A stretch of DNA of 55,921 nt from Candidatus Limivicinus sp. (lineage in GTDB: Bacteria; Bacillota; Clostridia; Oscillospirales; Oscillospiraceae). The stretch is from assembly GCA_045222695.1 (NCBI GenBank), contig JBGUZD010000128.1, positions 1 to 55,921 of the forward strand. The letters are read 5' to 3'. A program made the translations under genes and the position numbers. Under the pieces are notes generated by a model. That model saw only the letters and a list, made by a program, of their open reading frames with translations, was not told the origin of the DNA and did no database searches. Numbering within the stretch: position 1 is the stretch's first letter; the number at the start of each line of letters is the position of its first letter. Below are positions 1,877 to 55,492 of this stretch, one piece after another.

Positions 1877-1995
1877 GAAAGATGCCCGAACCGTGAGCGG
1901 AGCTTGCGGCGAGGTCAAATAACTGTATGATCTGACGCCGAAATCTGGATTGAGGCGGAAGGCCGGGTACAGCGCAGGAGATCTGCGGTCGTTTT

Positions 1996-2024: not shown

Positions 2025-2041
2025 CGGCGGAAAGGAGCCGT

Positions 2042-2293: not shown

Positions 2294-2307
2294 AGGAGGA
2301 AAAAACC

Positions 2308-30604: not shown

Positions 30605-30617
30605 GGAGGTGAGCGGG

Positions 30618-33971: not shown

Positions 33972-34031
33972 GTCAAATGTCTCCCTTTGAATTTGAACGA
34001 TAGTACTTCCTTGCGGAGGGTGCTTCGAAAA

Positions 34032-34050
34032 GAGACGTTCTTTTTTTTGC
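34032..34050. repeat. right half of the split terminator / right inverted repeat
   Basis: GAGACGTTCTTTTTTTTGC ends 14 nt after the CotH-1 stop (on the minus strand). It matches the reverse complement of 32881-32898 at 18 of 19 positions. Confidence 0.8.
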
Positions 34051-34063
34051 GTGTTTTTTCGGC

Positions 34064-36541: not shown

Positions 36542-36586
36542 CTATCTAAGCTCCTTTCAAAAAGGAAAGAGTCCTGTAGCTCATTC

Positions 36587-36615
36587 AGAATACCATAAGC
36601 CGCCCTTTTTCGCAA
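36587..36615 (-). promoter_or_regulatory. sigmaA-like promoter of CotH-1
   Basis: On the minus strand: TTGCGA, 17-nt spacer, TATTCT, with a TG at the extended -10 position (TGgTATTCT). Confidence 0.5.
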
Positions 36616-36719
36616 TCCTCAAATCGCCGCGGGAAAAACGACATTGCCACTTGATTTTTCACGCACATCCTGTAAAATACAAGGTGTCTTGATCCACTTT
36701 TAATCGGGAGGAACTGAAA

Positions 36720-37274
36720 ATGACTTATGAAATCGACATCGCCGGCCTGAAACGGGAGCTGCCCATCTGCAAGGTCACGGACGATCTTTACATCGGCGCC
36801 TTCGTCATGTTCGGCGACGTAGAGCTGACGGTCCACTGCGCCGAAGAGCTTCTCAAGCGCGCGCCGGAGTACGATTATCTCATCGCGCCCGAGGCCAAGG
36901 CCATCCCCCTGCTCTACGAGATGGCGCGCCAGAGCGGCGCGGAGAAATACTTCCTCGCCCGCAAGGTCGCCAAGGCCTATATGTCCGGCGTGTTCGAGGT
37001 GAACGTCAAGTCCATCACCACCGCCGCCGTGCAGCGTCTTATCATCGACACCGCCGACGCCGAGCAGATCCGCGGCAAGCGCATGCTGATCCTCGACGAC
37101 GTGATCTCCACCGGCGAGAGCCTGCGCGCGATGGAAGAGCTCGTCACCGCCGCGGGCGGAATCGTCGCGGGCCGCATGGCCGTTCTGGCCGAGGGCGACG
37201 CGATCGAGCGCGACGACATCATCGTCCTCGCTCCGCTGCCGCTGTTCAATGCCGACGGAAGCGTCAAAGCGTGA
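36720..37274 (+). CDS. phosphoribosyltransferase family protein (adenine/purine PRT-like)
   Basis: PRPP-binding motif MLILDDVISTGESL; 184 aa. Confidence 0.8.
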   Translation: MTYEIDIAGLKRELPICKVTDDLYIGAFVMFGDVELTVHCAEELLKRAPEYDYLIAPEAKAIPLLYEMARQSGAEKYFLARKVAKAYMSGVFEVNVKSITTAAVQRLIIDTADAEQIRGKRMLILDDVISTGESLRAMEELVTAAGGIVAGRMAVLAEGDAIERDDIIVLAPLPLFNADGSVKA

Positions 37275-37307
37275 GCTTTTCGATTTCAGGATACGGGTTT
37301 TTCGACC

Positions 37308-37341
37308 GAAACGCCCCCGGAAAGGATTCCGGGGGCGTTTC
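37308..37341 (+). terminator. hairpin terminator after the PRT gene
   Basis: GAAACGCCCCCGGA aaggat TCCGGGGGCGTTTC. Confidence 0.7.
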
Positions 37342-37419
37342 ATGTTAAGAAAATCTTAATGCTTTGCGTACTTGGAACTTAAAGACTTTTATCGTAAGAT
37401 AGGCGCGAGAGGTGAGGAG

Positions 37420-38115
37420 ATGTACAACATTCTGATCTGCGACGACGAGAGGGACATCGTCGCCGCCCTGAAGATCTATCTCGAGGCCGAGGGTTACACG
37501 ACCTTCGCCGCCCATGACGGGCGCGAGGCGCTGGACGTGCTGCGGCGCGAGAAGATCCACCTGGTGCTCATGGACGTGATGATGCCCGCGCTCGACGGCA
37601 TCGCCGCCACGGCGAAGCTGCGCGAGGAGAGCAACGTCCCCGTCATCCTGCTCACGGCCAAGAGCGAGGACACCGACAAGGTGCTCGGGCTCAACGTCGG
37701 GGCGGACGACTACGTCACGAAGCCCTTCAATCCGGTCGAGCTCTGCGCCCGCGTAAGATCCCAGCTGCGGCGCTATATGCAGCTCGGCGGCGGAAAGGCG
37801 GACGACGGGGCGCTCACGATCGGGCCGATCAGTCTTGACGAAAAGGCCAAGGAGGTCACACGCGACGGGGAGACGGTCTCCCTCACGCCGACGGAATACG
37901 AGATCCTGCGCTTTCTGATGCGCCACGCGGGCGAGGTCTTTCCGCCCAGGGAGCTCTATCGCCGCGTCTGGAACGGCGAGCCCTACGGCGCGGAGAACAC
38001 GGTTTCGGTCCATATCCGTCATATCCGCGAAAAACTGGAGGTCGACCCTGCCGAACCGCGTTGGATCAAAGCCGTGTGGGGCCGTGGTTATAAGTTCGAA
38101 AGGAGCGGGAAATGA
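37420..38115 (+). CDS. OmpR/PhoB-family response regulator
   Basis: MYNILICDDERDIV, LVLMDVMMPALDG, a winged-helix C-terminus, and WGRGYKF. Confidence 0.9.
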   Translation: MYNILICDDERDIVAALKIYLEAEGYTTFAAHDGREALDVLRREKIHLVLMDVMMPALDGIAATAKLREESNVPVILLTAKSEDTDKVLGLNVGADDYVTKPFNPVELCARVRSQLRRYMQLGGGKADDGALTIGPISLDEKAKEVTRDGETVSLTPTEYEILRFLMRHAGEVFPPRELYRRVWNGEPYGAENTVSVHIRHIREKLEVDPAEPRWIKAVWGRGYKFERSGK

Positions 38116-40184
38116 ACAAGCTCAAAGGCAGCCTGATCGCCAAAAGCATAGCGGCCATCCTCTTCTGCGCGCTGTGCCTGGGCTGCGCCGTCAGCGCGGC
38201 CGCCGCCGGGATGCTGTACTCGGCCGGCTTTTACGGCAAGGGCGCGGCCGCGGCGCGCGAACATCTGGCGCAGTCGCTCTGCGCGCTCGAGGCCGCAGGG
38301 ATCGCGGACCGCGTCTATCCGGTGAAATCGGAGGGGGAGAACAACGCGTTCCTTGCCAGCAGCGCCAACTATCGCTATGAGATCTTCGACTGCGACGGCG
38401 TGCTGCGCGCGACGAACTATGCCGGCGAGGAGACGATCGCCGTCGTCACGAGGCCGGGCTGGAACTATTTCCCTTACGACGCCTTTCCCGAGGGAACGTT
38501 CTGGGGCGAGGAGGCACAGACGGAAGAGGCGGCGCAGGACGCCTTGCCCATGGAGCCGCTGCCGACGGCTCTTCCGGATGGCGTCGAAGCCGTGGCCATA
38601 CCGACGCCGCCCGTTCCGGACCCGGAGCCCACGCCCACGCCGCGGGCCGTCACGACCCCGGGCGACATGTATGAGCCGCGCTATCGGCAGGTGAACTATA
38701 CGGTGACCTGTTATCTCCTGCGCGACATGACGCAGCGCGACAGCGCCGCCTTCCAGCTGGGCTGCTTCGACTTCGCCGCGGCCAACGATCAGCTTCTCAT
38801 CGGCGCGGCCGCCGCCTGTCTGCTGCTCGCGATCGCGGTCTTCATCTTCCTGCTGCGCGCGGCGGGGCACCGCCGGGACACGGACGAGATCAGGGCAAGC
38901 TTTATCGAAAAGATCCCCTTCGACCTCTTTACCGCGCTGATCTTCACGGCCGGCGCCTACATCCTGTATGCCTTCGTCGAGATCCTCGATCATCTCAACC
39001 GCCAGATCGGCTTCCGCCTGGCCGCCGCCGCGCTGCTGTTCGTGCTCGCCGTGCTGCTCGGTCTGCTGTGGTGCGTGAGTCTCGCCGTGCGCGTCAAGCA
39101 GAAGACGCTCGTCCGCGGCACGATCCTTTACAAGCTGCTGCAGCTGCTGTGGCGCGCGCTCAAGGCCCTATGGGGCTGGCTGAGGATGCTCCTCACCGGG
39201 CTTCCTCTGGTATGGCGCGGGCTGCTGATCCTCTGCGGAGCGGAGTTCATCGGCTTTGTGATCCTCGCGGCGAACAGCCGCAGGGCGGGCGCGACCGGCT
39301 TTCTGATCAATCTGTTCGTGTTCTTCCCGCTGGCTCTCTGGGGGCTGATCAGCGCCAAAGGGCTGCGCCGCGGCGCGCAGGAGATCGCAGGCGGCAATAC
39401 GGACTACACCGTTCCGACGAAGTATCTTCTCGGCGAGTTCAAAGCCCATGCCGAGGACCTCAACGCCATCCGCTCCGGCATCTCCCGCGCGGTCGAGGAG
39501 CGGCTGCGCAGCGAGCGCATGAAGACCGAGCTCATCACCAACGTCTCGCACGATATCAAAACGCCGCTGACCTCGATCGTCAGCTATGTAGACCTTCTGT
39601 CCAGGGAAGAGATCGACAATGAACAGGCAAAGGAATACATCGAGGTGCTGCAGCGGCAGAGCGCGCGGCTCAAGAAGCTGACGGACGACCTCGTCGAGGC
39701 CTCCAAGGCCTCTTCCGGCGCGCTGGGCGTGACGATCGAGGACTGCTCTCTGAGCGTGATGCTCGAGCAGACGGCGGGGGAATACGGCGAGAAGCTGGCG
39801 CAGAAAGAGCTCGAGCTCGTGCTCCGAAAGCCGGAAAAAGAAGTCATGGCGCGCGCCGACGCGCGGCACACCCAGCGCATCTTCGACAACCTCATGAGCA
39901 ACATCCTCAAATACGCCCTGCCCGGCACGCGGGTCTATCTGGAGCTGAAGGAGGACGAAAACGGCCCGGCCGTGATCTTCCGCAACACCTCGCGCAGCGA
40001 GATCGTGCAGAGCCCCGAGGAGCTGACCGAGCGCTTTGTGCGCGGCGACGCCTCGCGCTCGAGCGAGGGCAGCGGACTGGGCCTGTCCATCGCGCGCAGT
40101 CTCGCCGAGCTGCAGGGCGGCAGCCTTGCCGTCACGGTGGACGGGGACCTGTTCAAGGTCACGCTCGGCTTTGCGGCAAAATAA
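38112..40184 (+). CDS. sensor histidine kinase with large extracytoplasmic N-terminal domain
   Basis: ATGA overlap with the regulator gene. H-box SHDIKTPLTS and G-boxes GSGLGLSIARSL. The extracytoplasmic region of about 230 aa contains a Pro-rich stretch. Confidence 0.9.
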   Translation: MNKLKGSLIAKSIAAILFCALCLGCAVSAAAAGMLYSAGFYGKGAAAAREHLAQSLCALEAAGIADRVYPVKSEGENNAFLASSANYRYEIFDCDGVLRATNYAGEETIAVVTRPGWNYFPYDAFPEGTFWGEEAQTEEAAQDALPMEPLPTALPDGVEAVAIPTPPVPDPEPTPTPRAVTTPGDMYEPRYRQVNYTVTCYLLRDMTQRDSAAFQLGCFDFAAANDQLLIGAAAACLLLAIAVFIFLLRAAGHRRDTDEIRASFIEKIPFDLFTALIFTAGAYILYAFVEILDHLNRQIGFRLAAAALLFVLAVLLGLLWCVSLAVRVKQKTLVRGTILYKLLQLLWRALKALWGWLRMLLTGLPLVWRGLLILCGAEFIGFVILAANSRRAGATGFLINLFVFFPLALWGLISAKGLRRGAQEIAGGNTDYTVPTKYLLGEFKAHAEDLNAIRSGISRAVEERLRSERMKTELITNVSHDIKTPLTSIVSYVDLLSREEIDNEQAKEYIEVLQRQSARLKKLTDDLVEASKASSGALGVTIEDCSLSVMLEQTAGEYGEKLAQKELELVLRKPEKEVMARADARHTQRIFDNLMSNILKYALPGTRVYLELKEDENGPAVIFRNTSRSEIVQSPEELTERFVRGDASRSSEGSGLGLSIARSLAELQGGSLAVTVDGDLFKVTLGFAAK

Positions 40185-42672: not shown

Positions 42673-42701
42673 TTGACACCTCAAGGCGAAAATGCTAAAC
42701 T
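42673..42701 (+). promoter_or_regulatory. sigmaA-like promoter of the CotH-2 operon
   Basis: TTGACA (42673-42678), 17-nt spacer, TAAACT (42696-42701). Confidence 0.5.
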
Positions 42702-42754
42702 AACATGAATGATTACGGCCTTTTTCAATGCTTTCTTCAAAGGAGAACAATAGC

Positions 42755-45217
42755 GTGTTTGAACTGCCAGTCCGTCATAAAAAAACAAGGGCGATCACGG
42801 CCTGCCTGCTGCTGTGCGCCATGCTGCTCACAGCCTGCAGCATGCCCGCGGTATCGCCCGCGGAGGAGAACAAGCCGCCTGAGGAGACGGCCGCCCCGCC
42901 CGAGCCCACGCCCGAACCGACGCCGGAGCCCACGCCGGAGCCCACGCCGGAGCCCTTCCGCACCGAGATCGTGCTCAGCGAGCTTCAGGCCGCGAACAAG
43001 GCCGCGTTCCCGGACGCCGACGGCGACTTCGTGGACTGGATCGAGCTGTACAACCCCGGCGCCGAGCCGGGCGACATCACCGGATGCTGGCTCTCGGACG
43101 ACGAGAGCGAGCTCTGCAAGTGGCAGATCCCCTCGCTGACGGTCGAAAGCGGCGCCTACGCGGTGATCTTCTGCTCGAAGAAGGACCGCACGGAGGGCGA
43201 GCTCCACACGAACTTCAAGCTCTCCGGCGACGGCGACGCGCTTTTCTTCTCCTCGCCCGAAGGCGAGCTGCTGTGGAAGCAGAGCTACGAGAACTGCGGG
43301 GCGGACTGCTCGCTGTGCTTCGAGACGGAGACCGTGCGCTCCACGCGCTATCCCACGCCGGGATGGCCCAACACGCCGGAGGGCTATGAGGCCTTCATCG
43401 CCGCAAACGACCTTCACGGCGCGCTCGTGGTCAACGAGGCCGTCACCTACAACGACGACAGCCTTCTGCACGCCGGCGGCTATTACGACTGGGTCGAGCT
43501 GAAAAACGTTTCCGGCGAGACGATCGCGCTCAGCGATTATTACGTCAGCGACGACGCGGACGATCGTCTCAAATTCCGGCTGCCCAACGTCACGCTCGCC
43601 CCGGGGGAGATCTATACCATCTTCTGCGGAGACCCGATCCTGGAGACCGGGGCCTGCCACACGCCCTTCAAGCTCGACGGCAAGGGCGAGGGCTTCTATA
43701 TCCGCCGCGCGGACGGGACGCTCTCGGACTACATCAGCCTCTACGGCGTTCCGCTCAACCACAGCAAGGGCCGGCTGGACGGGAAAAGCGGCTTTTTCCT
43801 CTTCCCGAAACGGACGCCCGACGCTGCCAACTCCGGCGGCGCGCGCTATATCACCGAGAGGCCCGTCAGCGTAACGCCTCCCGGCATATACAACGACCGG
43901 ACCTCCCTCGAGGTCGAGCTCTCCGCCGAGGGCACGATCTACTATACGATCGACGGCTCCGAGCCGACGACCAGGTCCTCCGTCTACACCGGCCCGCTCG
44001 GGCTGAGCCGCACGGCGCAGATCCGCGCGATCGCCGTCGCGGACGGCAAGCTCACGAGCGAGATCGCCACCTATACCTATCTGCTCGGAGAGAACCACAC
44101 GCTCCCGGTCGTCTGCGTCACGCTCGACCCGCAGAAGCTCTACATACTCTACAACAACAACGGCAACATGGAGTACGACTCTCACACCGAGTACTACGGC
44201 CCGGACGGGAGCTTTGCCTCCGACTGCATGATCACGCTCCACGGCGCGGCCTCACGGAGCGCGTGGGACAAGAAGAGCTTCAAGGTCGTCTTCCGCGACC
44301 GCTACGGCGGAGACATCAACTTTGACCTCTTCGGCCAGGGCATCACGGAGTTCCACTCGCTGAATCTGCGCGGCGGCGATTCCGTCGGCATGCTCACCTT
44401 CCGCGAGCCTCTCGCTTCCGAGGCCGCCGAGCGCGTGGCCGTGACGGATCCCTTTACGCTGGATTCGCGCTTCTGCATCCTGTACGTGAACGGAGAGTAC
44501 TGGGGCATCTACACGCTGCGCGAGGCGTATTCGAGAAAATACGTCGCGAGCCACACGGGCTCGGACGAGGATCTGGCAAGGATCAGCCGCGCGCCCGTCA
44601 AGTACAAGTACCACCCGGATCTGTACGAGCTGTTCATGTTCGCCACGGGCAATGACATGACCAATCCGGACAATTACAACTACGTCGCCGACAGGCTGGA
44701 TCTGGTCAGCTTCGCCCAGTGGATCTGTCTGGAGACTTACTTCAACAACTACGACCCGACCGGCAATATCCGCTACTGCGTCGGCAATCAGCCGGACGGG
44801 AAATGGCGCACGATGTTCTTCGATCTCGACCAGGCCATGATGAACCAGGACGCGTCGATCTATGAGGCGCTCGGCCTGGGCCACAAGCCCTCGCAGGTCG
44901 GCAACATGCTCTGCAACCTGCTGAAAAACGCGGATTTCCGCCGGATCTTCCTGGAGACCGCGTCGGGGCTGTATCAGAACGGGCTTCGCCATGAGCTGCT
45001 CGTCGAGATCTTCGACCGCATGGTCAATGAGCTCGAACCGGAGATGGACCGCAATCTCAGACGCTGGGGCGAAAGCAAGGTCGCGTACGAGAACAACGTC
45101 TCGTGGCAGCGCGATCTGTTCGGACAGCGCCGGGACGACGGATTCAAACGATTTGTCCAGGCATATGCCGAGGTGGACGACGCGACGATGGCGGAGCTGT
45201 TCCCGCCGAGAGGATGA
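42755..45217 (+). CDS. CotH-family kinase lipoprotein with two LTD domains and chitobiase-C-like domain (CotH-2)
   Basis: The GTG at 42755 lies 9 nt after an AAAGGAG SD. Lipobox MLLTAC and a (PEPT)n linker. LSELQAAN..DWIELYNPG and VNEAVTY..DWVELKNVSG. GTIYYTIDGSEPTTRSSVYTGPL. CotH core (KKSFKVVFRD, ILYVNGEYWGIYTLRE, FDLDQAMM). The architecture is the same as CotH-1. Confidence 0.85.
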   Translation: MFELPVRHKKTRAITACLLLCAMLLTACSMPAVSPAEENKPPEETAAPPEPTPEPTPEPTPEPTPEPFRTEIVLSELQAANKAAFPDADGDFVDWIELYNPGAEPGDITGCWLSDDESELCKWQIPSLTVESGAYAVIFCSKKDRTEGELHTNFKLSGDGDALFFSSPEGELLWKQSYENCGADCSLCFETETVRSTRYPTPGWPNTPEGYEAFIAANDLHGALVVNEAVTYNDDSLLHAGGYYDWVELKNVSGETIALSDYYVSDDADDRLKFRLPNVTLAPGEIYTIFCGDPILETGACHTPFKLDGKGEGFYIRRADGTLSDYISLYGVPLNHSKGRLDGKSGFFLFPKRTPDAANSGGARYITERPVSVTPPGIYNDRTSLEVELSAEGTIYYTIDGSEPTTRSSVYTGPLGLSRTAQIRAIAVADGKLTSEIATYTYLLGENHTLPVVCVTLDPQKLYILYNNNGNMEYDSHTEYYGPDGSFASDCMITLHGAASRSAWDKKSFKVVFRDRYGGDINFDLFGQGITEFHSLNLRGGDSVGMLTFREPLASEAAERVAVTDPFTLDSRFCILYVNGEYWGIYTLREAYSRKYVASHTGSDEDLARISRAPVKYKYHPDLYELFMFATGNDMTNPDNYNYVADRLDLVSFAQWICLETYFNNYDPTGNIRYCVGNQPDGKWRTMFFDLDQAMMNQDASIYEALGLGHKPSQVGNMLCNLLKNADFRRIFLETASGLYQNGLRHELLVEIFDRMVNELEPEMDRNLRRWGESKVAYENNVSWQRDLFGQRRDDGFKRFVQAYAEVDDATMAELFPPRG

Positions 45218-45223
45218 GACGGA

Positions 45224-46318
45224 ATGGACGAAAAAAAACATAAAGCCGTACATACAAAAAAGAAAAAGCACATGAGCGTCGGCAAGATGATCGTGCTGGA
45301 TCTGCTCGCCATCGCCGCGGGTCTGCTCATCTTCGCGCTGTTCCACCATGTGCTGCCGCATTACGGCATCCTCCGCGTCGACGAGGGCGAGCCCGTCGTG
45401 CTCACGACGCTCGCGCCGCAGCCCACGCCCGCCCCCGCGCCGACCGAGACGCCGGAGGAGACGTCCCCTGAGGAAACGCCTCCCGAGGAGACGCCGGAGC
45501 CCGTGCGCGTCTATTCCGGCAGATGGGGCGAGAAGTTCGCCGACAAGTTCACCGACGGCGAGGTCATCCGGACCGAAAACAGCTATCAGAGCGAGAACAT
45601 CAACGTCAGCTACGAGCGCTTTGAGGAAAACGGAGTCATCTATTTTGTGGCGGACGTCTATGTCAGCGATCTGGGCTATCTGCGCTCCGGCTTCGGAAAC
45701 GGCAAGTACAACGGCGGCTTCCAGATGGTCGACGAGATCGCCCGGCAGGAGGACGCGGTCGCCGCGATCTCCGGCGATCACTACGCCGGACGCTATGAGG
45801 GCATCGTCGTGCGCAACGGCGTGCTCTACCGCGAGACCCGCTTCCAGGACGTGTGCGTGCTGCTCTCCGACGGCACGATGGTCACGATGACCAACGCGGA
45901 GCTGGACATGGACGATCTCAAGGCCGCCGAGCCCTATCAGGTCTGGTGCTTCGGCCCCGAGCTCCTCGACGACGAGGGCCATGCGCTGACGAAATTCAAC
46001 AGCATCGTCCTGCGGAACAATCCCCGCGCGGCCATCGGCTATTATGAGCCGGGACACTATGCTTTCGTCGAGGTCGAGGGGAGCAGGACCGGGTACTGGT
46101 CCGGCTCGCGCGGCATGAGCATGGACGAGCTCGCGGCCCTGTTCGAATCGCTCGGCTGCAAGAGCGCCTATAACCTGGACGGCGGCAGCAGCGTCGGCTT
46201 CGCCTGGATGGGCGAGCGCGTCAGCTTCAACTACAACCGCAGCATCCCCGACATCATCTACGTCGCGGACTTTCTGCCCGAGACGGGCGAGGCTGCCGGG
46301 CAGACGGGGGAGGGCTGA
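45224..46318 (+). CDS. membrane-anchored phosphodiester glycosidase family protein (NAGPA/DUF2233-like) 1
   Basis: N-terminal TM helix MIVLDLLAIAAGLLIFALF and a Pro/Thr/Glu linker. The core includes AAISGDHYA, PRAAIGY and AYNLDGGSS. Confidence 0.8.
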   Translation: MDEKKHKAVHTKKKKHMSVGKMIVLDLLAIAAGLLIFALFHHVLPHYGILRVDEGEPVVLTTLAPQPTPAPAPTETPEETSPEETPPEETPEPVRVYSGRWGEKFADKFTDGEVIRTENSYQSENINVSYERFEENGVIYFVADVYVSDLGYLRSGFGNGKYNGGFQMVDEIARQEDAVAAISGDHYAGRYEGIVVRNGVLYRETRFQDVCVLLSDGTMVTMTNAELDMDDLKAAEPYQVWCFGPELLDDEGHALTKFNSIVLRNNPRAAIGYYEPGHYAFVEVEGSRTGYWSGSRGMSMDELAALFESLGCKSAYNLDGGSSVGFAWMGERVSFNYNRSIPDIIYVADFLPETGEAAGQTGEG

Positions 46319-46321
46319 GAC

Positions 46322-46513
46322 ATGTTCAAAAGACTGCTGCCCCATCTCTGCCTTGACGCCGCAGTGATCTTCCTCGTCCTGTTTGTGCTCGACCGCGTCA
46401 ACGAGGCGATGCATTTTCTCTCGCGCGACATTTTCAAGATCCCCCTGGCGGTCTTCCTTGTTCTGGTGATCGTCGAGTCGGTGATCCTGATCATTTACCA
46501 AAGGAAGGAATGA
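46322..46513 (+). CDS. small two-TM membrane protein (63 aa)
   Basis: Two hydrophobic helices. It starts 3 nt after the previous stop, and its own stop overlaps the next start by 4 nt. Confidence 0.5.
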   Translation: MFKRLLPHLCLDAAVIFLVLFVLDRVNEAMHFLSRDIFKIPLAVFLVLVIVESVILIIYQRKE

Positions 46514-47946
46514 GGGCCGTGACTTTCAAAAGAGCCTCGCTGCTTGCGATCGCGCTGCTCCTCGCGCTGCTGCTCACGCTGCCGCTCGTCGGCTGCGGCA
46601 CAACGGCCCGGACGGACGAGAAGGAAGCGGAGCTCCCCGAGGAGCAGAGCGCTCCCCCCGTCGAAGAGGAGATCTTTGACTACCGGCTCGGCTCGCTCAC
46701 GCTCACGCCGGAAACGGAGAGCGTCGATCTGGACGAGGCGGGCGCTTCGATCGAGGATCTGATGCACTTCGTCAATCATCTTGACAAGCTTCGGGAGATC
46801 TCTCTGGGCGTGCCCGATGCGACGCTCGCACAGCTGCGCGCGGTCGAGGCGGCTTTTCCGCAGGCCGTCGTCAGCTGGAAGGCGAAGGTGCTGGACGGGG
46901 AGGTCGACTGCCGCGCCGAGAGCGTGGCTCTGGGGACCGCCTCCGACGAGGACGTGCCGCAGATCATCTCCGCGCTCGCCCTGCTGCCGGAGGTCAAAAC
47001 GCTGGAGCTCGCGCCGGAAGACGGCGTGACGGGCCTGTCCTTCGACAGCCTTGCCGCGCTCGCGGCCGCCGTGCCGGAGGCGGAGCTGAACTGCCGCTTT
47101 GAACTCTTCGGCCAGACGGCCGACTGGACGACCGAAAAGCTGAAATACAAAAAGGCCGCCGTCGGCGACGAGGGCGTCGATCTGTTCCGCGCCGCGCTGC
47201 CCTATCTGCGCGCGCTGGATCTGCTGCGCCTCGAGGACTGCGGCATCACCGACTACGACAAGATGGACGCGCTGCGCGCCGACTTTCCCGAAAAGCGCAT
47301 CGTCTGGAGCATCCCCATCGCGGGCTACACCTTCATGACGGACACGACGCTCATCAACGACGGCGATACGCACATTCTGAACGATCAGAACGTCGAGCTG
47401 TTCCGTTATTTGCACGACGTGCTGTACCTGGACATCGGCCATAATCACACGCTGACGAACATCGAGTTTGCACGCAATTTCCCCAAGCTGCAGGTCGTGA
47501 TCCTGACGCTGACGAATATCGCCGATATTTCTCCGCTGGAAAACTGCCCCGATCTCGAGTTCATCGAATGCCATTCCTGCCAGATCGGCGATCTGAGCCC
47601 CCTCGCGGACAAGGAGAAGCTCGAATACCTCAACATCGCGAACCTGCCGAACCTCCGGGATCTCTCGCCCCTGTACGGACTGCGGCAGCTCAAGATCGTC
47701 CGCATCTGCGGCTCGACCTTCACGCACCTCACCTTGGCCGACGTCGAAGCGCTCGAGGCCGCGCTGCCGGACACCTTCGTAAGCCATTACGGCGGAGACC
47801 CGAACAACTCCGGCGGCTGGCGCTATAACAATTATGTCAGCCCGGACGACTATACCGAACGTTACACGCTGCTCCGCGAGCAGATGCGCTACGATCTCAA
47901 CTGGCAGCTGAGACTGTCCAATTCACCGTCGGGAGAGGAAGACTGA
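46510..47946 (+). CDS. leucine-rich-repeat lipoprotein
   Basis: Lipobox LPLVGC. About 22-residue LRRs in the C-terminal half (LTNIADISPLENCPDLEFIECHSCQIGDLSPLADKEKLEYLNIANLPNLRDLSPL). Confidence 0.8.
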   Translation: MRAVTFKRASLLAIALLLALLLTLPLVGCGTTARTDEKEAELPEEQSAPPVEEEIFDYRLGSLTLTPETESVDLDEAGASIEDLMHFVNHLDKLREISLGVPDATLAQLRAVEAAFPQAVVSWKAKVLDGEVDCRAESVALGTASDEDVPQIISALALLPEVKTLELAPEDGVTGLSFDSLAALAAAVPEAELNCRFELFGQTADWTTEKLKYKKAAVGDEGVDLFRAALPYLRALDLLRLEDCGITDYDKMDALRADFPEKRIVWSIPIAGYTFMTDTTLINDGDTHILNDQNVELFRYLHDVLYLDIGHNHTLTNIEFARNFPKLQVVILTLTNIADISPLENCPDLEFIECHSCQIGDLSPLADKEKLEYLNIANLPNLRDLSPLYGLRQLKIVRICGSTFTHLTLADVEALEAALPDTFVSHYGGDPNNSGGWRYNNYVSPDDYTERYTLLREQMRYDLNWQLRLSNSPSGEED

Positions 47947-47952
47947 TCTTTC

Positions 47953-49005
47953 ATGGACGAGACTGTTAAGAAAAGACCCAAAAAGAAAAAACACGTATTC
48001 GGCAGATTCATGGCCTTTCTGGGCCTGACGCTGCTGTGCGTGATCCTCACGCTCGTCGGCGTGGTGTGGGTGGCGCTCAAGGGGCCCTCGCCCACGATGA
48101 CGGGCGCCGTGTGCAACTCCCTGCGCGAGACCAGCGCGCTGCGCTGGATCCCCGAACTGTTCCTCTCGGAGGAGGAGCTCGACAGCTATCTTCTCAAGAG
48201 CACCGAGGATCTGGAGACCGAGCAGGTCAACACCTCGCTGATCCATATCGCCGAGGCGCGGCAGAGCGAGACCAGCGGCCCGGAGACGCCCTATCTCGAG
48301 CTGGTGGACATCACCTATGGCACCTGCCGCGGCAAGCTTTTGATCATCCGCGAGCCGAAGAGCGTCATCCTCGGCACCTCGGGACGCTTCGGCGTCGATC
48401 CGGGGCTGCAGCTCACGGACATGGTGGCGAAGTACAACGGCCTTGCCGGCACGAACGCCGGCGGCTTCGTGGACAACAACGGCCTGGGCAACGGCGGCAC
48501 GCCGACGGGCATGGTCATTGCCGACGGGCAGATCCTGTACGGCGACGCCTACACGAGCTATAACGTCATCGGCCTTGACAAGGACGGATTGCTGCAGGTC
48601 GGCAGGATGACCGGCGGCGAAGCGCTCGAAAAGGGCATGAAATGGGGCGTGAGCTTCGTCACGCACGACGGCATCGCCTCAACGCTCGTCCTCAACGGCG
48701 AGGTGCAGACGCAGAACATCGGCCCCGGCGTCAACCCGCGCACGGCCATCGGCCAGCGCGAGGACGGCGCGCTGCTGCTGCTCGTGCTCGACGGCAGAAG
48801 CAGCAAGACCCTGGGCGCGACGCTCGGAAACGTCGTGGACATCATGCTGCAGTACGGCGCGGTCAACGTCGGCAACCTCGACGGCGGCTCGTCCTCCGTC
48901 ATGGTCTACGATGGAGAGATCATCAACAACTGCGCCTCCGTCACCGGGCCGCGCGGCATCCCCACGGGCTTCATCGTGCTCAGAGAGGAGGATCTCAATG
49001 GCTGA
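47953..49005 (+). CDS. membrane-anchored phosphodiester glycosidase family protein (NAGPA/DUF2233-like) 2
   Basis: N-terminal TM helix FMAFLGLTLLCVILTLVGVVWV. The core includes AGTNAGGF, PRTAIGQ and VGNLDGGSSS. Confidence 0.8.
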   Translation: MDETVKKRPKKKKHVFGRFMAFLGLTLLCVILTLVGVVWVALKGPSPTMTGAVCNSLRETSALRWIPELFLSEEELDSYLLKSTEDLETEQVNTSLIHIAEARQSETSGPETPYLELVDITYGTCRGKLLIIREPKSVILGTSGRFGVDPGLQLTDMVAKYNGLAGTNAGGFVDNNGLGNGGTPTGMVIADGQILYGDAYTSYNVIGLDKDGLLQVGRMTGGEALEKGMKWGVSFVTHDGIASTLVLNGEVQTQNIGPGVNPRTAIGQREDGALLLLVLDGRSSKTLGATLGNVVDIMLQYGAVNVGNLDGGSSSVMVYDGEIINNCASVTGPRGIPTGFIVLREEDLNG

Positions 49006-50392
49006 CAAGAGATCGAAAAGCAGCGGCTGGGGACTGTTCCTCCTGTTCTGGACGATGCTGCTGCTGATGCTGGGCTTTCTCGTGTGTGTGGCCTTTTACA
49101 AGTACACCGCCGTCTATGAGGAGACCCGCCCCGAGCGGACCATGGACGCGCTGATGGCCGAGATGAGCGAGGAGGACTGGCGCGAGACGCTCGCGGCCAG
49201 CGCCGGCGGCGTCAGCGAGTATGAGGACGCGCGCGCGCTCTTTGACGACTACTTCGACAGCACGATCAAGGGCAAACCGATCAGCTACCGCCGCGATCTC
49301 TCGCGCAGCGACGAGACGCAGACCGTCTTCGCGCTTTACGCGCTCTCCGCGCGGATCGGCGAGGTCAGGCTGCTCCCGCGTCAGACCGACGAGCGCTTCA
49401 GCTTCGGCCGCAGCCAATGGGAAGTCGACAGCATCACCTCCAAGACGCTCTCGGACAGCCTGCAGGCGCTCACCGTGCAGATCGAAGCTCCGGACGGCGT
49501 GACGCCTTACCTCAACGGCAAGGCCGTGGGGCAGGAAAAGATCGTCGATCCGGCGGTCGCGCTCACACAGCTCAGCGAGCTTGAGCGGCGCTTTGACGCG
49601 CCCGGCCCGCGCATGGTGCGCTACGAGATCGGCCCGCTCTACGGCCAGATCGCGGTGAGCGATCCCGACGGCAACGAGATCGCCCCCGTGGGCGAGCCGG
49701 AGGACGGCGTGCTGCGCTATGTGATCATGCCCACGAAGACCTATTCCTTCCGCGTGGAAGCGCCGGAGGGCGTCACGGTCAGCGTGTGCGGCGCCGCGCT
49801 CGGCGAAGAGCAGGTCCGCAGCTCGGAGCAGAACATGTTCCGCGGGCTTGAGAGCTATCTCCCGCAGGGCGGCTACAAGACCCTGCTCTATGAGGTCGAC
49901 GGCCTCTACATCGAGCCGGTGATCCGCGCCTCCTGCAACGGCGTCGAGCTCACGCCCGTGGTCGGAGGAGACGGAAGGCTCATTTACTTCTACCCCGACG
50001 ACGCGGACATCTCCATCGCGATGCACCAGGCGGCCGAGGGCTTTTTCTCGGACTACCTGTTCTACACCTCCAACAAGTACAACGGCGTCGCGCTCAAGAA
50101 CGTGCGGGACCGCATCCTGCCGGGCACCGAGCTGGACAGCTATTTTGCCAACTCCTACGACGCGATGATCTGGGCCTCGTCCACGGAGATGGACCAGAAG
50201 GAGCTGCGCTTTGAGAATTTCCACCGCGTGGGCGACAACTGCTTCACCTGCACGATCCTCTACAAGGCGGATTTCACGGCGACCCTGTGGTTCGGAACGG
50301 ACTCCTACGCCCGAGAAGACGGCTACAAGATGGTCTTCATCCGCGGCGAGGAAGGCCAATGGCTGGCCGCGACGATGTCGGCCTTTGAATGA
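48998..50392 (+). CDS. hypothetical membrane-anchored extracytoplasmic protein (464 aa)
   Basis: The ATG at 48998 overlaps the previous gene by 8 nt. TM helix LFLLFWTMLLLMLGFLVCVAF. No family was recognised; the last 110 aa or so may have an NTF2-like fold, which is a guess. Confidence 0.7.
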   Translation: MADKRSKSSGWGLFLLFWTMLLLMLGFLVCVAFYKYTAVYEETRPERTMDALMAEMSEEDWRETLAASAGGVSEYEDARALFDDYFDSTIKGKPISYRRDLSRSDETQTVFALYALSARIGEVRLLPRQTDERFSFGRSQWEVDSITSKTLSDSLQALTVQIEAPDGVTPYLNGKAVGQEKIVDPAVALTQLSELERRFDAPGPRMVRYEIGPLYGQIAVSDPDGNEIAPVGEPEDGVLRYVIMPTKTYSFRVEAPEGVTVSVCGAALGEEQVRSSEQNMFRGLESYLPQGGYKTLLYEVDGLYIEPVIRASCNGVELTPVVGGDGRLIYFYPDDADISIAMHQAAEGFFSDYLFYTSNKYNGVALKNVRDRILPGTELDSYFANSYDAMIWASSTEMDQKELRFENFHRVGDNCFTCTILYKADFTATLWFGTDSYAREDGYKMVFIRGEEGQWLAATMSAFE

Positions 50393-50402
50393 GAAACACA
50401 TC

Positions 50403-50446
50403 AAAACGCTCCCCGATGTCTTTGCATCGGGGAGCGTTTTGTTTTT
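50403..50446. terminator. bidirectional terminator
   Basis: AAAACGCTCCCCGATG tctttg CATCGGGGAGCGTTTTGTTTTT. Confidence 0.9.
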
Positions 50447-52003: not shown

Positions 52004-53203
52004 ATGTCCAAGGTCACACCGCCCAAATACGTCAAACAGGTGCTCGTCACGCTTCAGTCGCGCGGCTATCTCGCCTATCTCGTCGGAGGCTGCGTGCGGG
52101 ATATGATCCTCGGCGTCCACCCGCAGGACTGGGATATCTGCACCAGCGCCCTGCCGGAGCAGGTGCGGGAGCTTTTCCCGCGCACGCTCACGGTCGGCAT
52201 CCGGCACGGCACGGTCACGGTGTTGATCAACTCCCACGCCGTCGAGGTCACGACCTTCCGCAGCGACGGCAGCTACGCCGACCACCGCCATCCCGAGGCC
52301 GTCAGCTTCGTCGGCGACCTGACCTCGGATCTGGCGCGGCGGGATTTTACGATGAACGCGATCGCCCTGCCGCCGGACGGCCTTGTGGTCGATCCCTTCG
52401 GAGGCATCGAGGATATCCGCAAGGGCGTTATCCGCTGCGTGGGCGAGCCGGCGCGACGCTTTGAAGAGGACGCGCTGCGCATGTTCCGCGCGTTGCGCTT
52501 CTCCGCGCGCCTCGGCTTCGGGGTAGAGGAGGAGACGCTCTCCGCGATCTACGACAAAGCGCCGCTCGCCGCGGCGCTCTCGCCGGAGCGCGTGCGCGAC
52601 GAGGTCGAAAAAATGCTGCTGACGAACCGTCCGCAGATCCTGCTGACGGTGATCGAGGCGGGACTGCTCGACCGCTATCTGCTCCCGCGCCGGGAGGACG
52701 ACCCGGTCTCGGAGCTGATCCGTCTCACGGCGCTGCCGAAGAAGGCGCTGCCGCGCTGGGCGGGCCTTTGCGCCGTGCTCGAGCGGCACGGCCTGATCCG
52801 CTCGGCGCGCGATTTTCTGAGCGCGCTGCGTCTCGACGGACGCACGCAGCGCTGCTGCTCCGACTGCTGCGATCTGCTGCGCACCGAGCCGCCGAAGACG
52901 ACGAAGGAGTGGAAACAGCTCCTCAACCGCTACGGCGTGGACACGGCGACCTGCGCCGCCCAGTGCAGCGACGCGCTGCAGAGCCGCCGCTGCTGCGAAG
53001 CCCTGCGCGCCGTCCTCAAAAGCGGCGAATGCTTCTCCGTACGGCATCTCGCCGTCACCGGAGACGATCTGGTGGAGCTTGGCCTGCGCGGGAAGGAGCT
53101 CGGCGAGATGCTGAACTTCCTGCTCGAATATGTGATGGACTATCCCGAAAACAACCGCCGCGAGCTGCTGCTGCAGCTGGTGCGCGGCACGGAGGAGAAC
53201 TGA
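52004..53203 (+). CDS. cca: CCA-adding tRNA nucleotidyltransferase / poly(A) polymerase family protein
   Basis: YLVGGCVRDMILG, DWDICT and RRDFTMNA. Confidence 0.85.
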   Translation: MSKVTPPKYVKQVLVTLQSRGYLAYLVGGCVRDMILGVHPQDWDICTSALPEQVRELFPRTLTVGIRHGTVTVLINSHAVEVTTFRSDGSYADHRHPEAVSFVGDLTSDLARRDFTMNAIALPPDGLVVDPFGGIEDIRKGVIRCVGEPARRFEEDALRMFRALRFSARLGFGVEEETLSAIYDKAPLAAALSPERVRDEVEKMLLTNRPQILLTVIEAGLLDRYLLPRREDDPVSELIRLTALPKKALPRWAGLCAVLERHGLIRSARDFLSALRLDGRTQRCCSDCCDLLRTEPPKTTKEWKQLLNRYGVDTATCAAQCSDALQSRRCCEALRAVLKSGECFSVRHLAVTGDDLVELGLRGKELGEMLNFLLEYVMDYPENNRRELLLQLVRGTEEN

Positions 53204-53204
53204 C

Positions 53205-53777
53205 GTGAGCGAAGAAATGAAAAAGCTGGAGGCGCGCTGCGCGCTCTGCGGGAACTGCCCCCTCGGCGCGACGCGGACAAAGCTCGTCTTCGGCGTGGGT
53301 AAGGCGCCGAGCGAGCTGATGCTCATCGGCGAGGGCCCCGGCGAGCAGGAAGACCTGCAGGGCGAGCCCTTCGTCGGCCCGGCCGGCAAGCTGCTCGATG
53401 ACATGCTGGAGATGATCGGTCTGGACCGGACGCGCATCTACATCGCCAACACCGTCAAATGCCGCCCGCCGATGAACCGGGACCCGGCCCAGGAGGAGAT
53501 GGACGCCTGCCGCCCCTGGCTCGAAGAGCAGATCCGGCTCGTGCGCCCGAAGATCATCGTCTGCCTGGGGCGCATCGCCGCGGGCGAGCTGATCAAAAAG
53601 GACTTCCGCATCACGCGCGAGCACGGCCAGTGGTTTGACGTCAACGGGATCAGAACGATGGCGATCTACCACCCCTCGGCCCTGCTGCGCGACGTATCCA
53701 AGCGGCCCGAGACCTTTGCGGACCTGCGCGAGCTGCGCCGCGTCCTGCGCCGGGACACCACACTCTACGAAGAATAA
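53205..53777 (+). CDS. uracil-DNA glycosylase, family 4
   Basis: CALCGNC is the Fe-S cysteine motif. Also GEGPGEQEDLQGEPFVGPAGKLL and HPSALLR. Confidence 0.9.
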   Translation: MSEEMKKLEARCALCGNCPLGATRTKLVFGVGKAPSELMLIGEGPGEQEDLQGEPFVGPAGKLLDDMLEMIGLDRTRIYIANTVKCRPPMNRDPAQEEMDACRPWLEEQIRLVRPKIIVCLGRIAAGELIKKDFRITREHGQWFDVNGIRTMAIYHPSALLRDVSKRPETFADLRELRRVLRRDTTLYEE

Positions 53778-53786
53778 GGAAACTCC

Positions 53787-54692
53787 ATGATAGAATTCAA
53801 GACCGTCACGCTCTGTGACAAAGACTGGGTCGACGAGATCGTCCGCGCCGAGGGAAGCCGGAGCGCGGACTACAACTTCGGCAACATTTATATCTGGGAC
53901 AGCCGTTACCGCCAGCTTATCGCCCGCGCGGGGGATCGGATGCTCACGAAGCTCCGCTATGAGGGCAAGCCGACCTTCGTTTTCCCGATCGGCACGGGGC
54001 CGCTGCGCCCCGCGATCGAGGCCCTGCGTGAATTCGCGGCTGCGAAGGGCTATTCGCCCTTCTGCCTGCGCGGCATCACCGAGGAGCACCGCACCCTTTT
54101 GGAAAGCGAATATCCCGGCTGCTTTTCCTTCACGGAGGACGTCGACAACGCCGACTACATCTATGAAGCGGAAAAGCTCGCGACCTACGCGGGAAAGGCC
54201 CTGCACGGCAAGAAAAACCACTGCAACCGCTTCGAGGCGGAGAACGACTGGCGCTTCGTTCCGCTCACGCGCGAGCTGATCCCGGGCTGCCTCGACATGC
54301 TGGACGTCTGGACGGAGGAGAACGCCGAGAGGCTGTTCCGAAGCATCGTCTACGAGCACACGGCCATCGTGCGCGCCTTCGCGGCCTTTGAAAAGCTCAG
54401 TCTCGAGGGCGGCGTGCTCTATGCCGGCGGCAGGATCGTGGGCTTCACGCTCGGCGAGATGATCAGCGAGGACACCTTCGACGTCCATTTCGAAAAAGCC
54501 GAGGGCAGCCTCAACGGCGCCTACCCGATGACCTGCCGGGAGCTCACGCGCATGCTGATGGCGAAGTACCCGAAGCTGCGCTGGATCAACCGCGAGGACG
54601 ACATGGGCATCGAGACGCTGCGCCGCTCGAAGGAGAGCTACAAGCCCGCGTATCTGCTGAAGAAATATACCGCGAGGTGGATCGGAGCATGA
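53787..54692 (+). CDS. DUF2156 protein (stand-alone homologue of the MprF/LPG-synthase C-terminal, GNAT-fold domain)
   Basis: GKALHGKKNHCNRF and the overall length and pattern are typical of DUF2156. No membrane domain is present. Confidence 0.75.
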   Translation: MIEFKTVTLCDKDWVDEIVRAEGSRSADYNFGNIYIWDSRYRQLIARAGDRMLTKLRYEGKPTFVFPIGTGPLRPAIEALREFAAAKGYSPFCLRGITEEHRTLLESEYPGCFSFTEDVDNADYIYEAEKLATYAGKALHGKKNHCNRFEAENDWRFVPLTRELIPGCLDMLDVWTEENAERLFRSIVYEHTAIVRAFAAFEKLSLEGGVLYAGGRIVGFTLGEMISEDTFDVHFEKAEGSLNGAYPMTCRELTRMLMAKYPKLRWINREDDMGIETLRRSKESYKPAYLLKKYTARWIGA

Positions 54693-55492
54693 AGGTCCGT
54701 CACTACCGAAAAGACGATATCCCCGCCATGCGCGCGCTGTGGCGGCGCGTGTTCGACGAGCGCGAGAGCTTCCTCGACGCCTTCTTCACGCTGCTGCCGG
54801 ATATAGGCGGCGCGGCCGTCGCCGAGGACGATTCCGGCGCGCTCTGCGGCGCGGCTTACGCGCTGACGGGCTACGAGCTGCTTGCTGGAGGGGAGAGCCC
54901 CCACGTCGGCTATGTCTACGCCGTAGCCGTAGACGAGCGCGAACGCGGCCGCGGCCTCGGCGCGGAGCTGACGAAAAAGGCCGCCGCGATCTGCCGCGAG
55001 CGCGAGGCCGTCATCGTCGCGACCCTGCCCGCGGAGGAAAGCCTGTATCGCTGGTATGAAAACCGCATCGGCACGACGCATGTCCTGCGGCGCGAAAGAA
55101 AGACCGCAGCGGCGCAAAAAACGGTTGACATAATGAAACTGACTGGGACGGAATACATGCTCTGGCGCGAGAACATGCTGCGCGGGAAGCCCCACATCCA
55201 TCTGTCCCATCCGATGCTGGAGGCGCAGCGCGCCCTGTGCGAGGCATACGACGGCGCTCTCTGCGCTTCGAGCGACGGCATTTTCGCCGCCTACCGCGAG
55301 GGCGATCGGCTCATTGTCCCGGAAGTACTTTGCGCGCAAGGCTTTCCGGAGGAGACCGCCGCATCGGCCGCGGCGTATTTCGGCTGCCGCGAGGCCGTCT
55401 TTTTCGTCCCTGCGGAGCAGGGCGGCGAGGCCTATGTCGCCTCCGACACGGCGCTGCCTCCCGCTACGGTCTGGAATCTCACGATGGACTGA
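54689..55492 (+). CDS. GNAT-family N-acetyltransferase
   Basis: ATGA overlap with the DUF2156 stop. VAVDERERGRGLGAELTK is the acetyl-CoA motif A (R/Q-x-x-G-x-G/A). Confidence 0.8.
   Translation: MKVRHYRKDDIPAMRALWRRVFDERESFLDAFFTLLPDIGGAAVAEDDSGALCGAAYALTGYELLAGGESPHVGYVYAVAVDERERGRGLGAELTKKAAAICREREAVIVATLPAEESLYRWYENRIGTTHVLRRERKTAAAQKTVDIMKLTGTEYMLWRENMLRGKPHIHLSHPMLEAQRALCEAYDGALCASSDGIFAAYREGDRLIVPEVLCAQGFPEETAASAAAYFGCREAVFFVPAEQGGEAYVASDTALPPATVWNLTMD

Follow-up and report, generated by a model that had tools for sequence, protein, structure and literature searches.

What might a clostridial cell do at its surface with an exported CotH-family kinase and two phosphodiester glycosidases that are encoded side by side? 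The question is raised by a contig of Candidatus Limivicinus sp., a member of the Oscillospiraceae (JBGUZD010000128.1 of assembly GCA_045222695.1, positions 1 to 55,921 of the forward strand); this whole stretch of 55,921 nucleotides is called the window below. Six of its genes, here named g1 to g6, form an operon encoding a kinase lipoprotein with lamin tail domains (LTDs), two glycosidases of the NAGPA type, a membrane microprotein, a leucine-rich repeat (LRR) lipoprotein and a TcaA-like membrane protein. The order g1 to g6 recurs in about 35 loci of uncultured Oscillospiraceae and their relatives, and each NAGPA gene has a membrane partner. The answer we favor, tentatively and at a likelihood somewhat short of even, is that the operon serves vegetatively growing cells by modifying a glycopolymer of their own envelope that contains phosphate. 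The features of the operon are the following, with the type of evidence for each.

42673 to 42701, plus strand: sigma-A-type promoter, TTGACA, a 17-nt spacer and a TG-extended TAAACT, with 10 of 12 consensus matches
42755 to 45217, plus strand: g1, LTD-LTD-(CHB_HEX_C/Fn3_assoc)-CotH kinase lipoprotein (Pfam, Shine-Dalgarno sequence, lipobox, AlphaFold2 model)
44744 to 44839, plus strand: CotH catalytic core of g1, NNYDPTGNIRY with D676 and FFDLDQAM with D699 and D701
45224 to 46318, plus strand: g2, NAGPA-type phosphodiester glycosidase anchored by one transmembrane (TM) segment (Pfam NAGPA, 2.5e-22)
46322 to 46513, plus strand: g3, two-TM microprotein of 63 aa that pairs with the g2-type NAGPA (conservation; no Pfam match)
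46510 to 47946, plus strand: g4, internalin-type LRR lipoprotein (Pfam LRR_4, 6.4e-11; lipobox LVGC within 46582-46596, PLVGC)
47953 to 49005, plus strand: g5, membrane-proximal, TM-anchored NAGPA-type glycosidase (Pfam NAGPA, 1.1e-31; PDB matches)
48998 to 50392, plus strand: g6, TcaA-like single-pass membrane protein of 464 aa, obligate neighbor of g5 (AlphaFold2 model, Pfam matches within the family, adjacency)
50402 to 50441, plus strand: intrinsic terminator shared with a convergent murC-like gene, an 18-bp stem with 10 GC pairs followed by TTTTTGT

Layout and conservation of the operon

The six plus-strand open reading frames (ORFs) lie in one row, the first in its longest form spanning 42728-45217, and from g1 to g6 the gaps between them are +6, +3, −4, +6 and −8 nt. 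A preliminary description of this locus had placed the same ORFs and junctions between a sigma-A-like promoter and a strong terminator, all of which are present; it had also regarded all of the genes as translationally coupled, which stands for the −4 and −8 overlaps only, the +3 and +6 gaps being operon-like packing. As a control for the promoter, a consensus scan found 3 sites in the region against 1.8 expected, and a lone match is therefore not above chance. Upstream of the g1 orthologue, TTGACA-17-TAAACT/TATAAT/TATATT was found at the same spacing in 26 of the 26 loci checked, with TATAAT or TATATT as the −10 element in distant clades, and because the element is kept throughout these orthologous loci we take the operon promoter to be real. 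Shine-Dalgarno-like motifs are present at all six genes. For g1, AAAGGAG lies 8 nt upstream of GTG 42755 and ATG 42728 has no Shine-Dalgarno sequence; the true start is probably this GTG, giving a product of 820 aa, not 829 aa. The G+C content is about 62% across the region with no local shift. Scans of the whole window for tRNA genes and Rfam families found nothing, so that neither a riboswitch nor a leader RNA is present. On the opposite strand, ORFs of 430-749 aa span nearly the whole operon (42737-50404, minus strand), with no family matches where tested; they are artefacts of the 62% G+C and are misleading to simple longest-ORF gene calling.

According to hydropathy and a lipobox check, g1 and g4 are lipoproteins, g2, g5 and g6 have one N-terminal TM segment each, and g3 has two. 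The lipoboxes of g1 (LTAC) and g4 (LVGC) fit the rule [LVI][ASTVI][GAS]C after a positive n-region and a hydrophobic h-region. Low-complexity linkers of 25-40 aa are found in g1, g2 and g4 and are lacking in g5 and g6. Pfam and NCBIfam searches of the six products detected no cytoplasmic enzyme, glycosyltransferase, flippase or regulator domain. The lipobox, TM and domain searches agree with the initial view that the unit is wholly extracytoplasmic, and all six products are predicted to be tethered to the outer face of the cytoplasmic membrane in this Gram-positive-type organism.

Conservation was scanned from both ends of the operon. On the g6 side, taking one genome per species gave 35 loci from uncultured Oscillospiraceae, Ruminococcaceae, Lachnospiraceae and other Clostridia of rumen and gut. 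In 34 of these 35 species-level genomes g5 and g6 are adjacent; the pair occurs alone in 22, and the complete g1-g6 order is found in 11 (L006, L007, L009-L013, L015, L024, L035 and L039), with one more, L008, cut at a contig end. The same order is present in the ENA contigs L001, L005 and L087. On the CotH side, a metagenome scan yielded 22 g1-type loci at 45-92% identity, and all 20 whose contigs continue downstream carry g2 and then g3, g4, g5 and g6 as far as the contig reaches. The flanks vary by clade, with pol IV upstream and murC downstream in close relatives and other genes in other clades; gene-neighborhood conservation, which had been suggested as a check, is thus evident by an order kept across different flanks. 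By comparison, 19 loci of the paralogous CotH-1 type, to which a second CotH protein of the window belongs, have no NAGPA, LRR or g6 neighbors, and another, abundant type of LTD-CotH protein, 931-934 aa long and sharing 46% identity with g1, stands alone between clpB and a ribosomal operon. The LTD-CotH architecture by itself appears to be generic and often stand-alone. In the most distant full modules, identity to the window is 66-73% for g3, 63-70% for g5, 51-57% for g2, 45-55% for g4, 45-48% for g1 and 37-41% for g6; as judged from these values, g3 is conserved to a degree comparable with g5 and above the other four products.

The junction of g5 and g6 is itself conserved, with GGAGG-N7-ATGnnTGA producing an 8-nt overlap in 32 of 44 loci and spacings of −20 to +4 nt in the other 12. 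Where the pair occurs alone, g5 usually has its own sigma-A-like promoter match, TTGCAA/TTGAAA-17-TATAAT, 40-70 nt upstream; in the full module this promoter is replaced by the 6-nt g4-g5 junction. Altogether, gene order and junctions suggest that the operon is a composite of two pairs, g5-g6 and g2-g3, each a NAGPA enzyme with a membrane partner, to which a CotH lipoprotein and an LRR lipoprotein are joined, with g5-g6 as the older unit. The idea of a self-contained module therefore holds in that the order is strongly co-conserved, and needs revision in that the parts are separable. When g1-g4 were considered as an independent mobile cassette, no repeats and no composition shift were seen. 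A seven-gene variant, g1-g2-g3-g2'-g4-g5-g6, has an extra NAGPA gene directly after g3 and was observed in L007, L009, L013, L024, L043, L046, L047 and L087 (e.g., L087:5097-7435).

The kinase, the glycosidases and their partners

In g1, Pfam detected two copies of LTD (2e-21), CHB_HEX_C_1/Fn3_assoc (1.7e-17) and CotH (1.1e-32); these and the remaining NAGPA and LRR calls of the preliminary description all lie above gathering scores. The CotH match (PF08757) scores 114.3 bits against a cutoff of 23.8 and covers model positions 2-318 of 322. The lipobox lies within 42824-42838 (LLTAC), its cysteine conserved in at least 90% of homologues, and a Pro/Thr/Glu linker occupies 42845-42955. To place the catalytic residues, which are numbered here from ATG 42728, a 14-member alignment (the two CotH proteins of the window and 12 orthologues) was compared by hhalign with the sequence of Bacillus cereus CotH, 5jd9, itself retrieved from PDB with a Bacillus subtilis CotH sequence as query (E 2e-147). 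The resulting alignment, with an E value of 0.0021 over 219 columns and a probability of 13.6%, low because the template is a single sequence, pairs D676 with D228 and D699 with D251 of the B. subtilis protein at the same 23-residue spacing, D228 and D251 being the catalytic and metal-binding aspartates of that enzyme (PMC7821199). Residues K515, K516, D676, N680, D699 and D701 are invariant in the 14 sequences and in 24 database homologues, so the catalytic residues whose loss would have undermined the initial proposal are in place. PDB sequence searches with g1, with its kinase domain alone and with the 14-sequence profile did not reach a CotH structure. The AlphaFold2 model (predicted local distance difference test score, pLDDT, 86.4) has 5jda and 5jd9, both B. 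cereus CotH, as its best Foldseek matches in PDB (E 1e-12, TM-score 0.73), and consists of a signal/lipobox helix, a disordered linker (residues 27-64, pLDDT below 50), two lamin-type Ig domains, a beta domain and the kinase domain. From sequence and model, g1 is a bona fide CotH-family enzyme and probably active.

The second CotH protein of the window (34064-36541, minus strand) repeats the LTD-LTD-CHB_HEX_C-CotH layout and is likewise a lipoprotein, with the lipobox LSAC; it shares 35% identity and the invariant catalytic residues with g1. Upstream of its gene is a 252-aa ORF with no Pfam match (36585-37343, minus strand) and downstream a DUF1963 gene (33108-34187, minus strand); both recur beside the second CotH in locus L074.

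The two glycosidases are recognized by Pfam NAGPA (PF09992) at 80.3 bits for g2 and 110.7 bits for g5, against a cutoff of 25, and g5 matches vertebrate NAGPA and bacterial DUF2233 structures in a PDB sequence search, g2 more weakly. The chemistry of NAGPA is cleavage of the C1-O bond in a sugar-1-phosphate diester; in a 2026 structure paper on the human enzyme, the loop 286-DGGGS-290 is called strictly invariant, D286, G288, G289 and S290 are each essential, the G289A protein is inactive, and R316 binds phosphate (PMC13474241). The counterpart of this loop reads NLDGGSS both in g2 (46172-46192), which also has a Pro/Thr/Glu linker at 45413-45502, and in g5 (48874-48894), so that D, G, G and S are kept and the position of G289 is never Gly within the module. 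Across g2 orthologues the loop is DGG[R/Q/A/S]S, and the variable fourth position suggests a diversified or relaxed subsite. All 42 homologues have the g5 loop unchanged, and the stretch of active site around it varies hardly at all, even across genomes in which g6 is only 32-40% identical; this near-invariance points to an active enzyme with a fixed substrate. A conserved Arg follows 20-24 residues past the loop, in PRxIP in g5 and in Y-x-R in g2, and that of g5 aligns with an Arg of the bacterial homologue 6ozd, making it a candidate counterpart of human R316. Database names for the products of the operon are generic, namely "CotH kinase family protein," "lamin tail domain-containing protein," "phosphodiester glycosidase family protein," "exopolysaccharide biosynthesis protein" and "hypothetical protein." The fourth of these labels presumably goes back to COG4632/EpsL, named after a gene in the eps cluster of Lactococcus lactis.

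The 63-aa product g3, listed at first as a peptide with no assignment, turns out to belong to a larger family of NAGPA-gene partners. Among 1.84 billion representatives, all of them scanned with HMMER, 100 related clusters were found, with P7, H8, D24 and N27 nearly invariant within the conserved pattern LPHxCxD...DRxNxAM..LxRDxFKxP. Three distant homologues, 33-39% identical, lie directly 3' of a g2-type NAGPA gene with junctions of a 4-nt overlap, +14 and +5 nt; no CotH gene is found on these three short contigs. As judged from this adjacency, g2-g3, like g5-g6, is a conserved combination of an enzyme and its membrane partner. A 137-aa product (P0442) encoded on a 562-nt contig (L089:76-489) joins a g3-like two-TM N terminus to a C-terminal NAGPA fragment (YNLDGGQTS); the fusion may be genuine, or it may result from a frameshift or from misassembly. 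In g4, internalin-like NCBIfam models match weakly and far below their full-length cutoffs, and phmmer against PDB gives internalin A (1e-17) and a Roco LRR (1e-19). The protein has no LPXTG, GW or other wall anchor of the Listeria internalins, its lipobox serving as the anchor instead.

Originally listed as an unknown membrane protein, the 464-aa product g6 now appears to be TcaA-like. All of its 81 homologues are from metagenomes or from uncultured Oscillospiraceae and related metagenome-assembled genomes, and Pfam TcaA_5th (PF22819, NTF2-like) matches 5 of 23 aligned family members (best E 3.6e-6). The AlphaFold2 model of g6 (pLDDT 87.8) has one TM helix (residues 9-42), a mixed domain, two beta-sandwich domains and a C-terminal NTF2-like domain, and its structure matches are NTF2-like proteins. 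We call g6 TcaA-like rather than a proven TcaA member because it lacks the zinc finger of that protein.

Genes around the operon

A Pfam survey of the flanks covered 123 ORFs from 37 loci and found Mur ligases in 8 loci, HlyD in 7, MacB/FtsX in 4, Pol IV in 4, GT2 with GtrA in 2 and BacA in 1. None of the 123 ORFs was an LCP, TagO, Stealth or Wzx/Wzy gene, and we therefore reject the view of the operon as part of a teichoic-acid or capsule locus. Genes linked to polyprenyl phosphate are seen in a few places: PAP2 and GT2-GtrA after the g5-g6 pair in L003 and L004, GT2-GtrA before the pair in L040, BacA in L005 and, preceding a g2-g3 pair, a gene with a GtrA domain in L090. These links of NAGPA pairs to polyprenyl phosphate are sparse and suggestive. 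An HlyD-ABC ATPase-MacB/FtsX permease-HlyD cluster lies upstream of g5-g6 in seven species-level genomes (L017, L023, L025, L026, L031, L034 and L038; e.g., L034:2952-8634); it was rejected as a member of the unit, being about 100-200 nt away (about 195 nt in L034) from a pair that usually has its own promoter-like site. Genes for an OmpR-type response regulator and a histidine kinase (37372-40184 of the window, plus strand), about 2.5 kb upstream of the operon, were likewise rejected, since they are syntenic only in close relatives (L045, L046, L054 and L087) and absent from the other module loci. In the pair-only relative L085, a 496-aa LRR protein, SpoIIR and a SleB-like enzyme (PG_binding_1 and Hydrolase_2) are encoded within a few kilobases of g5-g6 (896-3047 and 9660-10331), and because of SpoIIR and the SleB-like enzyme the clade is taken to include spore formers.

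Further out in the window, positions 52004-55492 (plus strand) encode proteins of the CCA-adding/poly(A) polymerase and UDG families, a stand-alone LPG_synthase_C protein resembling the C terminus of MprF, and a GNAT protein, a block that is conserved downstream of murC in the close relatives L001 and L087. At 22616-28139 (minus strand), the gene of a 1024-aa GLUG-motif protein overlaps the end of a gene for an 819-aa MMPL-family transporter, and the two may be a surface/export pair. Genes for an FAD-linked oxidase, an electron-transfer flavoprotein alpha subunit and a LarA lactate racemase (28372-32873, plus strand) look like a lactate-utilization cluster.

Proposed function, alternatives and known systems

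In the reading that we favor, the target would be a wall polymer of the producing cell, either teichoic-acid-like or secondary, the unit that links it to murein or lipid, or else a surface protein with phosphoglycosyl groups. Sugar-1-phosphate linkages would be split by the NAGPA enzymes at the glycosidic C1-O bond, with a phosphomonoester left behind; g5 would do this on the surface of the membrane and g2 at a greater distance, within the wall. The kinase g1 would phosphorylate a sugar or a Ser/Thr acceptor, g3 would organize or regulate g2 in the membrane, and binding and placement of the polymer would fall to the LTD, CHB_HEX_C, LRR and TcaA-like parts. Several lines of evidence argue for a substrate of this type. 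The products are membrane anchored, g5 and g6 being linker-free and g1, g2 and g4 having short linkers, and the chemistry of the NAGPA family is directed at sugar-1-phosphate diesters. In bacteria, LTDs typically occur as fusions with surface phosphoesterases, and binding of polyanionic polymers has been predicted for them (bioRxiv 10.1101/2024.03.27.587046). CHB_HEX_C is typical of hexosaminidases, and Staphylococcus aureus TcaA, a single-pass protein with its bulk outside the cell, is implicated in the handling of wall teichoic acid, either its ligation or its retention (PMC10328498).

A number of points weigh against this reading. The G289 equivalent is altered in both NAGPA paralogs; since the human enzyme is inactive with G289A, their chemistry or leaving group may not be that of GlcNAc-1-phosphodiester cleavage. 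The LCP, TagO, Stealth and Wzx/Wzy genes that might mark a polymer pathway are absent from the 123 flanking ORFs, and polyprenyl-phosphate-linked genes among these are only sporadic (GtrA/GT2 in 2 loci, BacA in 1). LTD-CotH proteins often stand alone, and the kinase may have a general role unrelated to the NAGPA enzymes. The likeness to TcaA has its own gaps: only relatives of g6, and not g6 itself, match TcaA_5th in Pfam, and with about 8 residues before its TM helix g6 has no room for the cytoplasmic zinc finger or ribbon of TcaA. All carriers are uncultured Clostridia of rumen and gut. We also know of no established supply of ATP outside the membrane of a monoderm cell that an extracellular kinase could use. 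That the operon writes phosphate and erases phosphodiesters, as was proposed at the outset, is something we infer, with no known route for a phosphate donor to the outside of the membrane.

A bolder version, which we consider a doubtful conjecture, would make the NAGPA-partner pairs "de-ligases" of Gram-positive envelopes. They would cut the sugar-1-phosphate bond that joins a wall teichoic acid, capsule or secondary polymer to MurNAc-6-phosphate or to its undecaprenyl-pyrophosphate carrier, and would in this way oppose LCP ligases, so that polymers are released or recycled, with g6 and g3 as membrane regulators. In the six-gene form, the exported CotH would re-phosphorylate or mark the same polymer from an unconventional phosphate donor, the result being a reversible phosphate code.

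The alternative that survives best, unlikely as we hold it to be without finding it far-fetched, directs the module outward, at foreign material such as the phosphoglycans or teichoic acids of other microbes in the rumen, the phosphomannan of fungi, or glycans from host or diet, for adhesion, competition, or scavenging of phosphate and sugar, with the LRR and LTD parts as adhesins. The internalin-type LRR of g4 fits such a role, as do the occurrence of LTD-LTD-Fn3-CotH in the extracellular cellulosome protein Cthe_0239 of Clostridium thermocellum (PMC6083626), the presence of NAGPA domains in predicted inter-bacterial conflict proteins (bioRxiv 10.1101/2025.01.14.632903), and the fourth loop residue of g2, which diversifies (R/Q/A/S/N/G) as expected for a changing target. 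It is opposed by the anchoring of all six products by lipid or TM segment to the membrane of the producer, with linkers that are short or, in g5 and g6, lacking, and by the near-invariant active site of g5, which bears no sign of an arms race. Moreover, Pfam searches of the operon and the 123 flanking ORFs revealed no linked transporter or catabolic gene, and a kinase has no obvious place in scavenging.

Distinctly unlikely, in our estimate, is a module directed at proteins, in which CotH phosphorylates Ser/Thr of surface proteins such as the Pro/Thr/Glu linkers or the LRR protein, and NAGPA removes sugar-1-phosphate caps. Characterized CotH enzymes are indeed Ser/Thr protein kinases (PMC7821199), the linkers of g1 and g2 are rich in T/S-x-E, and human NAGPA works on diesters borne by glycoproteins (PMC13474241). 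Against these observations, the operon encodes no Ser-rich-repeat substrate of the kind represented by CotB and CotG, its LTD, CHB_HEX_C and TcaA-like parts point to the binding of polymer or carbohydrate, and the problem of ATP supply is the same as for an envelope glycopolymer.

It seems improbable to a high degree that the six genes merely share a neighborhood, as independent envelope proteins placed on a common transcript in one lineage only. While g5-g6, g2-g3 and LTD-CotH each occur alone elsewhere, the order g1-g2-g3-(g2')-g4-g5-g6 is kept as protein identity drops to 38-48% and the flanks change, the g1 orthogroup was never found without the rest in the 20 loci whose contigs continue, and the pair has lost its own promoter in favor of a 6-nt junction. 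A sporulation module, acting in the intermembrane space or at the spore surface in maturation of cortex, coat or exosporium, is very improbable and moves the spore-surface option of the preliminary description out of favor: Bacillus CotH is a spore-coat kinase (PMC7821199), a g5-g6 relative encodes SpoIIR and a SleB-like enzyme nearby, and the LTD phosphoesterase ShfP works in the forespore intermembrane space (bioRxiv 10.1101/2024.03.27.587046), but the conserved promoter (TTGACA-17-TAAACT/TATAAT) is a sigma-A one and lacks a −10 element of the CATA type, a sigma-A-like match is usually present at the stand-alone pair too, anchoring of the products to the outer face of the membrane as lipoproteins or TM proteins is incompatible with coat assembly in the mother-cell cytoplasm, and the flanks of the operon are housekeeping genes (murC, pol IV and the CCA-adding enzyme).

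Editing of the cell's own envelope glycopolymer thus remains our preferred reading, and its interest is not confined to this genome. Bacterial NAGPA/DUF2233 proteins and exported CotH proteins outside spores are widespread families with no assigned function, and they are here joined in one strictly conserved unit; a dedicated membrane partner for each NAGPA enzyme, either TcaA-like or a 63-aa microprotein, gives rise to concrete hypotheses. The obligate pairing of a TcaA-like protein with a NAGPA enzyme suggests a chemistry that TcaA may control in the retention of wall teichoic acid, and a kinase that is intact in its catalytic residues yet lies outside a monoderm membrane prompts one to ask what its phosphate donor is. 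Should linkage units prove to be what the NAGPA enzymes cleave, this would bear on how Gram-positive cells detach or recycle wall polymers.

The combination of CotH and NAGPA appears undescribed, in line with the first impression of the locus: a full-text literature search returned no paper with CotH and a phosphodiester glycosidase together, and none of the six closest known systems has both. Bacillus CotH, which acts with CotB and CotG (PF08757; 5JD9/5JDA), shares with g1 the kinase fold (TM-score 0.73) and the catalytic and metal-binding aspartates, whereas g1 is an exported lipoprotein fused to two LTDs and CHB_HEX_C, is expressed from a sigma-A-type promoter, and has neither a linked Ser-rich coat protein nor a spore-coat context. 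Eukaryotic NAGPA and bacterial DUF2233 proteins (PF09992; 6PKU, 3OHG, 6OZD) have the same domain as g2 and g5, with the loop residues D, G, G and S kept, and human NAGPA is likewise membrane tethered; they differ in that the fourth loop residue is Gly in the eukaryotic enzyme but Ser in g5 and variable in g2, and in the dedicated membrane partner, g3 or g6, of the latter two. The operon also departs from two-step tagging of the mannose-6-phosphate type, as no Stealth/GNPT GlcNAc-1-phosphotransferase is encoded in it or in the 123 flanking ORFs. S. aureus TcaA (PF22813/PF22820/PF22819) resembles g6 in its single TM segment, its extracellular bulk and, in the model, a C-terminal NTF2-like domain, whereas g6 has no zinc ribbon, lies below Pfam detection, and is always coupled to a gene for a NAGPA enzyme, an arrangement not reported for tcaA.

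The remaining three systems involve CotH or LTD proteins. The cotH-polyphosphate polymerase-DUF4956-DUF4832 group of Gram-positive pel operons likewise has a non-spore CotH in an extracellular-polymer locus (PMC7112168), but that group has no NAGPA, and the six-gene operon has no VTC/polyphosphate polymerase, DUF4956 or pel gene. The cellulosomal CotH proteins of C. thermocellum (Cthe_0239, with LTD, LTD, Fn3 and CotH; CseP) have an extracellular LTD-LTD-beta-CotH architecture identical to that of g1 (PMC6083626), although they are attached to the cellulosome by a dockerin rather than anchored by lipid and are not reported with NAGPA or LRR partners. B. subtilis ShfP differs from g1 in being a calcineurin-like phosphoesterase, not a kinase, and a single protein instead of an operon; like g1, it has an LTD joined to an enzyme of phosphate chemistry on the cell surface, and a teichoic-acid-like substrate has been predicted for it and its surface relatives (bioRxiv 10.1101/2024.03.27.587046), a radiation among which NAGPA fusions have been noted.

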